In this document: positions 5,432 to 37,664 of the stretch, piece after piece
Position numbering within the stretch: the first letter of the stretch is position 1
Layout of the letters: each line of letters opens with the position of its first letter
Assembly: GCA_951406725.2 (NCBI GenBank)
Contig: OX597826.1
Span: forward strand, 44,826,001 to 44,890,000
Length of the DNA: 64,000 bases
From: Octopus vulgaris
Lineage: Eukaryota
Reading direction: 5' to 3'
Notes under the pieces: model-generated
Databases searched by the model: none
The model's input: only the letters and a program-made list of their open reading frames with translations
What the model was told of the DNA's origin: nothing
Made by a program: the position numbers and the translations under genes

Positions 5432-5619
5432 GGTGTGAGAAAATGGTTAAACAATAGTTAATTTAGATAAGATATGAAATAGAGAGTGAAGTGAAGGAAT
5501 AAAACTAGATGTGAGATATGCAGGGATATTGCATTTGTAGATCTATTTTCATTTCTCCACTTCACCATCTACTTCATATCTTATCTAAATTAACTATTGC
5601 TTATCCATTTTCTCACACC

Positions 5620-5666
5620 AACTCCGATGAAGGGATATAATACATATCTCGAAACAGCTGTAAGCC
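5620..5666 (+). ncRNA. Type I hammerhead ribozyme (CCGAUGA core, weakened stem I)
   Basis: CT-CCGATGA-A-GGGATAT-AATAC-ATATCTC-GAAAC-AGCT-GTA-AG. Confidence 0.7.
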
Positions 5667-5881
5667 CTTCTATTTATAAATGTTCTAACATCTTCACAGC
5701 TTTGGGTTTTTTTATCTCATTCTGAAATTTTTTTTTATATATACACATGCTGATATATGACATACGTTGCACTCCTTATTCCCATAATCACCGAACCTGG
5801 AGCTTAACTATGGTCTGTCCATAGCACTTACTCAGCATTACCTGATACCTTTGGGTCTTATTGACCACTTTACCTCTCATA

Positions 5882-28813: not shown

Positions 28814-28816
<3 letters not shown>

Positions 28817-29158
28817 AAAGTATAGAAGCCATCTTAACATGGTTAACCACATAGGGGAGGGTGTGTTACTGTAGCTTTATAACCCCAGGAGATCGTCGTC
28901 TCCAGCTGACAAGGGACAAAAATCCCGAAACTAGTCCGAGCGTATCACTCAGGCTTGCGAGTAAGGGATGGCCTCCCTTTGCAAATACTTCAAGGGCACT
29001 GAAATGGTGTCTAAAGCCAGCTGGAGACGACGATCTCCTGGGGCTACAAAGCTACAGTAACACCCCCTCCCCTATGTGGTTAGCCATGTTAAGATGGCTT
29101 CTATACTTTACATTATCGAGCGATTACTGTTTCAATATCATTCTGAGATTTAATAATG

Positions 29159-29160
<2 letters not shown>
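28814..29160 (+). mobile_element. Non-autonomous PLE/retrozyme-like element (sister family of the 360-bp unit) with inverted arm
   Basis: 28814-28908 is the reverse complement of about 29017-29112; 28972-29160 aligns with 31095-31285; ends at (TA)n. Confidence 0.8.
28906..28940 (+). ncRNA. 5'-broken hammerhead
   Basis: CTGACAA-GGGA-CAAAAA-TCCC-GAAAC-TA-GTC; palindrome ACTAGT; stem I 5' strand replaced by the inverted arm. Confidence 0.6.
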
Positions 29161-29208
<48 letters not shown>

Positions 29209-30776: not shown

Positions 30777-30811
<35 letters not shown>

Positions 30812-31008
30812 CAATAATAATTCTCTAAAAGGGATATAGACAGTAACTGCTCGATAACATAAGGGACTAAAGCCATCTGAATATGGCTAGGGACAGGGCA
30901 GGGTGGTGGGGGTGTTACTGTTGCATTTAGCCCCAGGCGAACATCGACGTCAACAGAAAGGCTCGACACCGTCACGGTGCCCTAAATGCATAGTGAGAAT
31001 TCGTCGAG

Positions 31009-31082
31009 GAAGCGGAGGCCTACCACACGCCGATGATAGGCAATACACCTTGAAACCATGGTCCGTGTGTGGTTTCCGCTTC
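31009..31082 (+). ncRNA. Type I hammerhead ribozyme, unit 1 (predicted cleavage after 31063)
   Basis: GAAGCGGA..CACACG-CCGATGA-T-AGG-CAATACA-CCT-T-GAAAC-CATG-GTC^CGTGTG..TCCGCTTC; palindromic stem III ACCATGGT; extended stem I. Confidence 0.85.
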
Positions 31083-31368
31083 ATCGGGGAATTACCTCCC
31101 TTTGCAGGTTTAGGGCACCGTGACGGTGTCGAGCCTTTCTGGTGACGTCGATGTTCGCCTGGGGCTAAATGCAACAGTAACACCCCCACCACCCTGCCCT
31201 GTCCCTAGCCATATTCAGATGGCTTTAGTCCCTTATGTTATCGAGCAGTTACTGTCTATATCCCTTTTAGAGAATTATTATTGCTTTCGAACAGATTTTC
31301 GAAATCAGCAAATGTATTTTGCTTGAAAATCTATATAAGAAAATCCTGCATAGTGAGAATTCGTCGAG

Positions 31369-31442
31369 GAAGCGGAGGCCTACCACACGCCGATGATAGG
31401 CAATACACCTTGAAACCATGGTCCGTGTGTGGTTTCCGCTTC
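31369..31442 (+). ncRNA. Type I hammerhead ribozyme, unit 2 (cleavage after 31423)
   Basis: Identical to unit 1. Confidence 0.85.
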
Positions 31443-31728
31443 ATCGGGGAATTACCTCCCTTTGCAGGTTTAGGGCACCGTGACGGTGTCGAGCCTTTCT
31501 GGTGACGTCGATGTTCGCCTGGGGCTAAATGCAACAGTAACACCCCCACCACCCTGCCCTGTCCCTAGCCATATTCAGATGGCTTTAGTCCCTTATGTTA
31601 TCGAGCAGTTACTGTCTATATCCCTTTTAGAGAATTATTATTGCTTTCGAACAGATTTTCGAAATCAGCAAATGTATTTTGCTTGAAAATCTATATAAGA
31701 AAATCCTGCATAGTGAGAATTCGTCGAG

Positions 31729-31802
31729 GAAGCGGAGGCCTACCACACGCCGATGATAGGCAATACACCTTGAAACCATGGTCCGTGTGTGGTTTCCGCT
31801 TC
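31729..31802 (+). ncRNA. Type I hammerhead ribozyme, unit 3 (cleavage after 31783)
   Basis: Identical to unit 1. Confidence 0.85.
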
Positions 31803-32088
31803 ATCGGGGAATTACCTCCCTTTGCAGGTTTAGGGCACCGTGACGGTGTCGAGCCTTTCTAGTGACGTCGATGTTCGCCTGGGGCTAAATGCAACAGTAA
31901 CACCCCCACCACCCTGCCCTGTCCCTAGCCATATTCAGATGGCTTTAGTCCCTTATGTTATCGAGCAGTTACTGTCTATATCCCTTTTAGAGAATTATTA
32001 TTGCTTTCGAACAGATTTTCGAAATCAGCAAATGTATTTTGCTTGAAAATCTATATAAGAAAATCCTGCATAGTGAGAATTCGTCGAG

Positions 32089-32162
32089 GAAGCGGAGGCC
32101 TACCACACGCCGATGATAGGCAATACACCTTGAAACCATGGTCCGTGTGTGGTTTCCGCTTC
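32089..32162 (+). ncRNA. Type I hammerhead ribozyme, unit 4 (cleavage after 32143)
   Basis: Identical to unit 1. Confidence 0.85.
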
Positions 32163-32317
32163 ATCGGGGAATTACCTCCCTTTGCAGGTTTAGGGCACCG
32201 TGACGGTGTCGAGCCTTTCTGGTGACGTCGATGTTCGCCTGGGGCTAAATGCAACAGTAACACCCCCACCACCCTGCCCTGTCCCTAGCCATATTCAGAT
32301 GGCTTTAGTCCCTTATG

Positions 32318-32365
<48 letters not shown>

Positions 32366-36052: not shown

Positions 36053-37664
36053 CAGTTGCGGCCCAAATATTCAGAACGGCATTGTTTTCGTCAGAAAAGT
36101 AGGTATAGGTTTTTATTAAAGTTGTTTTATATTCTGTAATTTTCACAGACAATAAATACAATATTAATTGGTATTGTCTGAGATTTTGGTGTAATTTGAG
36201 TGGATAATGCAAAAGTTATGGATGATATAGTAATTTAATGCAAAACCCATGGTGGCCAAAATCATCAGAACGGTTGAAAAAATTACAAAATAATCAAAAA
36301 GTGACAGAGAATGCTGGAATTATTTCATATTTAGTGTGAAGCCCTTTAGCTTCAATCAAAGTTTGACATTTTTGACTGCATGGGGAAATTAAATTTTCAA
36401 TTTCTTGCTGGGTGATCTTATTCCATTCTTCCTGAAGGGCATTCTATAATTGCTCGGTTGTTTTAGGATTTCTGGTTTTCAAACGTTCTCCTAGAATATT
36501 CCACACATTTTCAATAGGATTGAGGTCTGGACTTTGAGCAGGCCAATCCATAACAATAACCTTTTCAGCCTTGAGGAAGTTCATGACCACATTAGCCTTG
36601 TGACATGGGGCATTGTCCTGCATGAATATGGGTGGTCGCTTAGTTGAATTTCTCAGCACAGGCAAGACATGATCTTTTACAAGTTGTTTATAAATTCCTG
36701 CATTTACCTTTCCATGTAATCGCAGCAAAGGGCCCACAACATCTCCAGATACCATCCCCCAAACCATGACACTTCCTCCACTGAATTTAACACTAGTCTT
36801 AAGGCATTTAGGTGACAATTTTTCACCTGCTTTTCCCATCTGAGCTAAATAACATAGACTTAGATTCATCACTGAAATGCACCGTTTGCCATTTTTCTTG
36901 AGACCACAACACATGTTCGGTTGCAAAGGTAAGACGACACTTTTTATTCTTGGAGCTGATCAGTGGCTTCACTGCAGGTGCTCTTGCTTGTAGGACATGT
37001 TCAACTAAAGGACGAGACACAGTTTTTCGAGATAAGGTTTTCTTCAGTACAATGCTCATTTTCCGAAAAACAGCAGCAGCAGTTTTAAATCTGTCCTTTT
37101 TAACCAACTTTACCATAGCACGTTCTTCTCTCTTGGTCGTTTTTCTTGGCCTACCTGTAGACTTTTTGGTTCACACGAACCACAATCATCGTAGACCTTA
37201 AGAATACCGTGAACAACACTTTTTGACTTGTTAACAATCTTTGCAATAGACCTAATACTTAAATTATCCTTCTTTCGAAGCTTACTAATCTGCTGACGAA
37301 TTGGTAACGGAGTAAGTGGCATTATATTAACAAGGTACACTGCAGATATTCTTACTAATGTTTAGTAAACGAAGTGTCACGTAAACAAATTCAAAACATT
37401 ATAGTTCGACGGTTAAATATACTAAAACATGGAGTAAAAGCAACCGTTCTGATCATTTTGGCCGCCATGGGTTTTGCAGTAAATCCCTAAATCATCCATA
37501 ACTTTTGTATTATCCTCTCAAATTACACCAACATTTCAGACAATAACAAATAATATCGTATTTATTGTCTGTGAAAATTATAGAATATAAAACAACTTTG
37601 ATAAAAACTTATACCTACTTTTCTGACGAAAACAATACCGTTCTGAACATTTTGGCCGTAACTG
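36053..37664 (-). mobile_element. Full-length Tc1-like (D,D34E) transposon with long IR/DR-type TIRs, TA TSD and frameshifted transposase
   Basis: TA-CAGTTGCGGCCCAAA...TTTGGCCGTAACTG-TA; ~224-bp TIRs (36053-36276 / 37441-37664); ORFs with HFSDES, SVMVWG, FMQDNAPCH, WPAQSPDLNPIENVW. Confidence 0.93.

Follow-up and report, generated by a model that had tools for sequence, protein, structure and literature searches.

Non-LTR retrozymes are a known class of metazoan element (Cervera and de la Pena, 2020, PMC7229834; bioRxiv 10.64898/2026.07.22.740005), and their use of Penelope-like element (PLE) machinery has been argued from co-occurrence and from similarity to the PLE pLTR (PMC7229834; bioRxiv 10.64898/2026.07.22.740005). 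PLE insertions carry an inverted arm and a one-end tail as published marks (PMC8557442, PMC3846280), the tail being frequently at one end only (PMC8557442). How PLE reverse transcriptases (RTs) recognise RNA, and why the insertions have a one-end tail and an inverted arm, are stated as open questions (PMC8557442). In a PLE of the anole, two internal sites that lie 3' of the hammerhead serve as starts of reverse transcription; these sites bound the genomic tail, which has been linked to them in vitro, and RNA 3' of both start sites is required (PMC11167929). The anole protein, a predicted dimer, nicks both strands of AT-rich DNA (PMC11167929). The element class and the PLE tail are already known; as far as the literature searched shows, what is new here is that covariation supports a fold for a lineage of animal retrozymes, with both end sites placed on it, and that the rule of mixed ends has been counted. 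A literature search that covered few subscription papers and a minority of Repbase reports gave no study in which covariation had been analysed for a retrozyme of animals.

We analysed a window of 64,000 nt of Octopus vulgaris DNA (contig OX597826.1, 44,826,001 to 44,890,000, forward strand; positions below are those of the window). It holds two insertions 1.7 kb apart, both within TA repeats. Judged by their sequence, family A (28907-29160) and family B (30987-32321) are non-LTR retrozymes, two branches of a large family. Each repeat unit has a type I hammerhead, in which 172 of 181 cells are paired and stem I covaries in the rows that reach it, and the units are 350-369 nt long, within the 150-400 nt of the short, dispersed, non-coding tandem units of this class, with arrays on many contigs. 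No RT plus GIY-YIG reading frame lies within the repeats or is joined to them, as an autonomous PLE would have, and neither an RNA-gene head nor pol III boxes were found that would place them among the tRNA, 5S or 7SL SINEs. Elsewhere in the window, 5612-5680 (plus strand) holds another hammerhead-like pattern with a C4 core and a palindromic stem III, which the profiles used did not relate to families A-K. Positions 270-1066 resemble the C-terminus of a LINE RT and 36447-36959 a Tc1/mariner transposase, fragments that we take to be ordinary repeats.

The family A insertion starts with an inverted arm (28814-28908, minus strand), which is the reverse complement of 29018-29112 and has 3'-end site 1 at its outer end; it meets the plus-strand part at a palindrome (28903-28908). 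An earlier note, made from the letters of this window, had drawn a conserved domain over 28814-29160. The homology of 28972-29160 to family B held, whereas 28814-28908 is the inverted copy and not a part of the domain. On the plus strand, a 5'-truncated type I hammerhead (28907-28942) has its core from 28907, a palindromic stem III, stem II at 28913-28926, a predicted cut after 28936 and the 3' strand of stem I at 28937-28942; an Rfam HH9 match at 28905-28937 scored below gathering. This copy starts inside the hammerhead core, and its hammerhead is predicted to be inactive because the 5' strand of stem I is lost. Other family A copies are 350-357-nt monomers with an intact type I hammerhead, including the stem I 5' strand and a U3/A8 core, a core swap also carried by families C, G and I. 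Further along the plus strand, the predicted elements are the 5' strand of a long stem, P0 (28949-28988), hairpin P2 (28994-29012), P3 (29015-29046; outer stem, internal loop and inner hairpin), the long-range helix P4 (29054-29061 with 29123-29130), P5 enclosed by P4 (29082-29099), 3'-end site 1 (~29112) in a single strand of 23-24 nt likewise enclosed by P4, hairpin P6 (29136-29149, with one mismatch in this copy) and an AU-rich single strand (29150-29160) that ends at 3'-end site 2 and is followed by (TA)n at 29160-29205. Full monomers contain the partner strand of P0, which is missing here.

The family B insertion has an inverted arm (30810-31016, minus strand), with site 2 at its outer end next to (TA)n, and a plus-strand tandem (30987-32321) of 3.7 copies of a 360-nt unit, which ends at site 1 before (TA)n. 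In the first unit the type I hammerhead (31023-31072) has the core CCGAUGA, a palindromic stem III and a predicted cut after 31063, and the hammerhead recurs every 360 nt along the tandem. The C at core position 4 (U4C, 31030-31036) is fixed in B, a very young and expanding family, and is shared with families J, K1 and D2. One B unit contains the complete predicted fold on the plus strand (31076-31375): P0 (31076-31108 with 31345-31375), P2 (31113-31130), P3 (~31132-31166), P4 (31174-31181 with 31248-31255), P5 (31207-31224), site 1 (~31240), P6 (31261-31273), site 2 (~31285) and P7 (31306-31325).

DNA searches of the 2.8-Gb host genome found 13 subfamilies, some of them by chance in flanks, and more distant ones may be missed; their representatives are 45-83% identical. 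First-look candidates numbered 1809 for A, 656 for B, 2608 for C, 2527 for D, 2822 for I, 3357 for F, 1852 for J and 422 for K, counts that are not copy numbers and may overlap; per family the best 40 candidates were scored and 20-30 examined. Copies of family B are 99-100% alike and those of family K are ~75-84% identical to the query, which points to a long period of activity in this lineage. In public sequencing data, 20 runs under seven organism labels contain family B words, none of the 20 being recorded as RNA. Contigs over the B unit loop back at 360 nt in presumed-RNA and unlabelled runs, which circles and tandem DNA fit equally, and one contig end in one run (X19) shows hairpin P2 with changes in both strands. 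An exact pattern scan of metagenome contigs gave 0 matches.

The hammerheads of A and B are clearly unlike, and the part that they share lies downstream. All blocks named by the earlier note are present: 28972-29160 aligned with 31095-31285 at 71.2% identity over 198 nt (BLASTN, E 4e-17), and the local alignment score of A and B was 228, against 79 ± 7.5 (maximum 109) in 1000 shuffles. Each pairing that the note had proposed can form in both copies, the AGCC strand in B sitting a few nt upstream. Folded on its own, the shared part is no stabler than shuffles (z 0.05 and 0.03), and the case for structure therefore rests on comparison. We aligned 13 rows by sequence only (nine majority rows and four single copies) and folded them together, which recovered the hammerhead and helices P2-P6. 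Some rows were dropped in the course of the analysis: two majority rows took the place of decayed single K copies, and a repeated E row was taken out. In the domain, 486 of 556 cells were paired, against a fraction of 0.70 ± 0.02 in tree simulations that keep each column's number of changes (0 of 1000), and two-sided changes occurred in 26 of 45 pairs versus 9 under the null; P2 was paired in 76 of 78 cells.

Since those pairs had been chosen on the same data, two cleaner tests were run. For the out-of-sample test, the 26 pairs of the earlier note were kept as A and B had defined them and applied to the remaining 11 rows: pairing held in 250 of 272 cells against a tree null of 0.73 ± 0.03 (0 of 5000), with 37 two-sided cells where 14 were expected (20 of 5000) and P2 paired in 44 of 44. 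The null counts per helix, out of 5000, were 6 for P2, 0 for inner P3, 24 for outer P3, 222 for P5 and 0 for P4. Double changes on the same branch kept the pair in 18 of 18 cases, and 21 single-branch changes broke one. The consensus energy was -69 kcal/mol versus -32 ± 4 kcal/mol in 60 tree-simulated alignments folded in the same way. Scored on 16 natural copies, the same pairs were 85.8% paired, compared to 78.0% when shuffled (0 of 500) and 35-50% when slid; in this alignment P2 was misaligned (67%) and the number of pair types did not exceed that of shuffles. Of 59 proposed pairs, 4 passed E < 0.05 in a single-pair G-test; three of these belong to hammerhead stem I and the fourth to P4. 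An all-pairs scan gave no pair at E < 0.05; this per-pair test is underpowered. Statistics were weak for P5, P6 (37 of 1000) and P4a (95 of 1000), and G-U versus A-C cells (28 versus 20) do not fix the strand. No conserved pseudoknot emerged from the alignment scans. A pseudoknot candidate at columns 104-256, the top pair outside the model (E 0.17), was rejected for its lack of consistent neighbours across families, as were the best alternative 4-bp helices, which were G-U rich or overlapped existing stems. The earlier note had proposed a selected multi-branched RNA and had named a lack of significant covariation in a larger alignment as what would speak against it; with the tree-aware nulls rejected and covariation seen out of sample, also in the test of P0 described below, this structure is almost certainly under selection.

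The first block of the earlier note (28972-28983) lies in the 5' strand of P0, whose partner lies ~60-90 nt past site 2, beyond the coordinates compared at that time. P0 is a predicted stem of ~35 bp that closes the monomer and is continuous with hammerhead stem I, and no other element covaries as strongly. In a test on 12 subfamilies that needed no alignment, we paired each 5' strand with every 3' strand; the duplex energy averaged -39.5 kcal/mol for cognate strands versus -22.6 kcal/mol for those of other families (0 of 100000 permutations), and the cognate duplex ranked first in 8 of the 12 rows and in 11 of the 12 columns. A local hairpin, P1, seen when only the truncated region was aligned, reached -9 to -17 kcal/mol compared to -27 to -49 kcal/mol for P0 and is kept as a weaker alternative fold. 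Seven whole monomers gave z of -3.5 to -8.8 (40 shuffles each), the B unit of the window scoring -4.9. In the lowest-energy fold of that unit P0, P5 and P7 form and P3 and P4 do not form as drawn; of all families, B agrees least with the arm model. In the predicted shape, the hammerhead sits on the long stem P0, followed by a multi-way junction of P2, P3, P4 with P5, P6 and P7. Hairpin P7, preceded by a conserved AUCAG, is kept at homologous positions in seven full monomers; it is missing from most single genomic copies because it lies 3' of both end sites.

Copies of the retrozymes end at fixed places relative to this fold. Across seven families, 221 of 248 3' ends fell at two sites, 79 at site 1 and 142 at site 2; the loci were top matches to queries ending at a site, so that these counts are biased toward full-length copies, and stopping there was not forced. 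Site 1 lies in the strand between P5 and P4 and site 2 lies 11-21 nt after P6, both in predicted single strands. The site-1 strand is 23-24 nt long in 11 of 11 full rows at 61% majority identity. The 5' ends were scattered, with no clustering inside the domain. Among 76 outward-inverted insertions, 62 combined one end at site 1 with an opposite end at site 2, three had site 2 at both ends, none had site 1 at both, and 11 had one end elsewhere. Where both ends were at a site, 62 of 65 were therefore mixed (p 2e-8 versus independent choice); locus selection could hide insertions with two site-1 ends in most families, but not those with two site-2 ends, and in family C, queried up to site 1, 7 of 7 were mixed. 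The A and B insertions of the window both obey this rule, in opposite senses. The targets of 29 of the 62 mixed insertions were TA repeats, and 26 of the other 33 had a flanking direct repeat of 7-15 nt, compared to 19 of 76 single-orientation copies, a comparison made without a shuffled control. An inverted 5'-truncated arm with a tail at one end only, AT-rich or microsatellite targets and short target duplications are traits of PLE-mobilised copies, and all were found here, the tail measuring 43-59 nt; these retrozymes are very probably mobilised by Penelope-like machinery.

The fold surrounds the two fixed copy ends and is therefore likely to be a landing pad for a Penelope-type enzyme. We favour, with fair though limited confidence, the reading that the arms are a binding and initiation platform for a Penelope RT supplied in trans. 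Tandem DNA would be transcribed and the hammerheads would cut out monomers or circles, as judged from retrozymes of other animals. A PLE RT-endonuclease, likely a dimer, would then bind the junction, placed there by the fold rather than by short sequences, and nick AT-rich DNA in a staggered manner on both strands. The junction would present two start windows, each primed from one of the two staggered nicks: a first cDNA would run from site 2 and a second from site 1 at the opposite nick, and the meeting of the two would give a head-to-head insertion with the 43-59-nt tail at one end only. That a single RNA is primed twice from the opposite nicks by the two subunits of an RT dimer, a programmed twin priming on the same molecule, is a more tentative proposal, which we consider possible without holding it probable. 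Self-priming on an antisense template has been proposed for the inversions of PLEs (PMC3846280) and may apply here as well, though by itself it predicts no mixed ends with target duplications.

A serious rival, though an unlikely one overall, is that the fold serves the RNA's own life: P0 would join the monomer ends for hammerhead folding or circle ligation, the arms would protect the circle or bind a host protein, and the RT starts would be set by short AU-rich sequences. Such a scaffold for circle folding likely explains P0, which runs on from hammerhead stem I and covaries most strongly; for the retrozyme circles of animals a high degree of self-pairing is predicted and protection in vivo has been suggested (PMC7229834), and no PLE among the sampled loci shares the fold. 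However, stability needs neither a fixed topology nor a site-1 strand of fixed length, the isolated arms have no excess stability, and AU-rich strands elsewhere are rarely used as ends (27 of 248 ends lie outside both sites). An internal promoter or another DNA-level signal with incidental pairings, which the earlier note had also suggested, is improbable. The pLTRs of PLEs do carry promoter motifs (PMC3846280), a moved retrozyme must be transcribed, and a few unpaired positions are nearly invariant, but double changes that keep a pair are not expected of DNA binding sites, and a B box was found in 0 of 17 rows and an A-box pattern in 1. The note's third suggestion, a second catalytic motif, here a ribozyme or ligase of undescribed kind formed by P2-P6, is still less probable and gained no support: the fold is multi-helical and has some invariant unpaired G, U and A residues around P3, but conservation is higher in paired columns than in unpaired ones (0.83 versus 0.68), no conserved pseudoknot was found and 5' ends do not cluster in the domain. 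Comparison with Rfam, as the note had advised, gave 0 matches at gathering over the window and, at E ≤ 10, none over 28940-29150 or the B domain except one chance-level match touching the final (TA)n, so that the domain 3' of the hammerhead has no Rfam match. Neutral descent, or a decayed coding region or tRNA-SINE core as the note itself had weighed, is scarcely credible, since the relatedness of the subfamilies, which leaves some pairing inherited, and the near-zero z of the isolated domain are set against the rejected tree-aware nulls, and no coding signature (71 of 919 pairwise internal indels were multiples of 3; stops in all three plus frames in 17 of 17 rows), tRNA (ARAGORN), B box or Rfam match was found.

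The proposed platform would act with an enzyme encoded elsewhere, and GIY-YIG matches are plentiful in the genome, including RT plus GIY-YIG frames of 781 aa, whose RT score is just under the Pfam cut-off. A young PLE family (L105:1206-4600, L098, L106, L112 and L113) combines this 781-aa frame with an upstream frame of ~400 aa and a repeat-rich 3' UTR. A hammerhead-like motif of its own shares the U3/A8 core and the palindrome of stem III with families I and G, and the element ends in TA repeats with two 3' ends 38 nt apart; it is a candidate enzyme donor. BLASTN, nhmmer and model R1 found no match of the domain to this family or to the other sampled PLE-like loci. The search scored the best 150 of 6136 GIY-YIG candidates and the best 150 of 6677 RT candidates, of which a part was examined, and covered GIY-YIG matches, four Neptune-like and several Naiad-like families, clade names that we assigned from motifs rather than from a tree. 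The Naiad-like families (L368-L379) are young, with open frames of 842-1091 aa, and the one 842-aa frame scanned had no Pfam match. The comparison with 3' ends of autonomous PLEs that the earlier note had called for thus yielded no shared fold, each match being a separate retrozyme insertion. An apparent link in L099, where the domain lies 1.3 kb after a PLE reading frame, did not hold up: 600 nt earlier a TA repeat already closes the PLE, and sister copies are without the domain. As no partner PLE sharing the fold was found, the RT recognition or priming signal envisaged by the earlier note is something that we infer from position, namely from copy ends inside and just after the fold. The 3' end of a Neptune-like PLE is itself much simpler, and a PLE RT may therefore not need so elaborate a fold.

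The retrozymes are also targets of another element. A LINE of ~5.3 kb (zf-CCHC, Exo_endo_phos, RVT_1 and zf-RVT) inserts just 5' of hammerhead stem I with a target duplication of ~15-17 nt (L052:389-5665, L051, L108 and L264-L323). Among the LINE 5' ends inspected, from 30 of 182 candidates, 30 of 30 followed the retrozyme target sequence, of several subfamilies and in one case only as a short remnant, and 29 of 30 inspected 3' ends (of 170 candidates) were followed by the hammerhead and domain. Six 5'-truncated LINE copies were likewise flanked by retrozyme, and in three of them the target was duplicated, which speaks for separate targeted insertions and against hitchhiking. Lying just behind the LINE, the hammerhead might determine where the LINE transcript has its 3' end. 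A LINE copy (L051 and L014) lies between family A upstream and family C downstream, within an inverted-arm insertion, which suggests a composite of >5 kb re-copied by the PLE machinery, or else recombination. If so specific a targeting is true, the retrozyme family would be well enough conserved to support a parasite of its own, namely a LINE that inserts only ahead of the hammerhead. Tx1 LINEs such as Tx1-Mar and Keno target other repeats (PMC4494074) and likewise combine an endonuclease and an RT with insertion at one position of another repeat. The target here differs in being a hammerhead retrozyme, and the LINE is putatively Tx1-like; among the literature titles searched, which included few subscription papers or Repbase reports, none had a hammerhead as a LINE target.

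The octopus elements agree with the described metazoan retrozymes in a type I hammerhead per tandem unit of 350-370 nt, the absence of a reading frame and the occurrence of dispersed monomers and arrays, mussel repeats being 350-390 bp; the available text of those papers gives minimum-energy folds or sequence trees only, without cross-family covariation or end mapping (PMC7229834; bioRxiv 10.64898/2026.07.22.740005). With the Penelope-like pLTR and tail, including Poseidon PAc of the anole, they share a hammerhead followed by two RT start or end sites, an inverted 5'-truncated arm, a tail at one end, AT-rich targets and short target duplications (PMC11167929, PMC8557442, PMC3846280), and the partner strand of P0 lies 3' of both sites, as does the RNA required in the anole. 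They differ in having no reading frame, in a tail of 43-59 nt versus 30-40 nt in PLEs, in the place of site 1 (~175 nt after the cut versus ~90 nt in PAc) and in the absence of a sequence link to the sampled PLEs (PMC11167929, PMC8557442, PMC3846280). Penelope-like RTs are the closest relatives of telomerase, and it is their recognition of RNA that is at stake. The recognition step is directly testable, because the 13 subfamilies provide a structure model, compensatory variants and mapped start sites, and young family B offers a protein-free RNA of 360 nt with two start sites mapped to within a few nt. Twin priming, if true, would account for both the PLE tail and the head-to-head inversion by a single mechanism, on a template scaffold in the style of telomerase RNA. 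Telomerase RNA has an internal single-stranded template window bounded by helices and is used by a related RT; the analogy is limited by the lack of a pseudoknot in our alignment and by the extent of copying, which here would run through the whole RNA instead of a short repeat.
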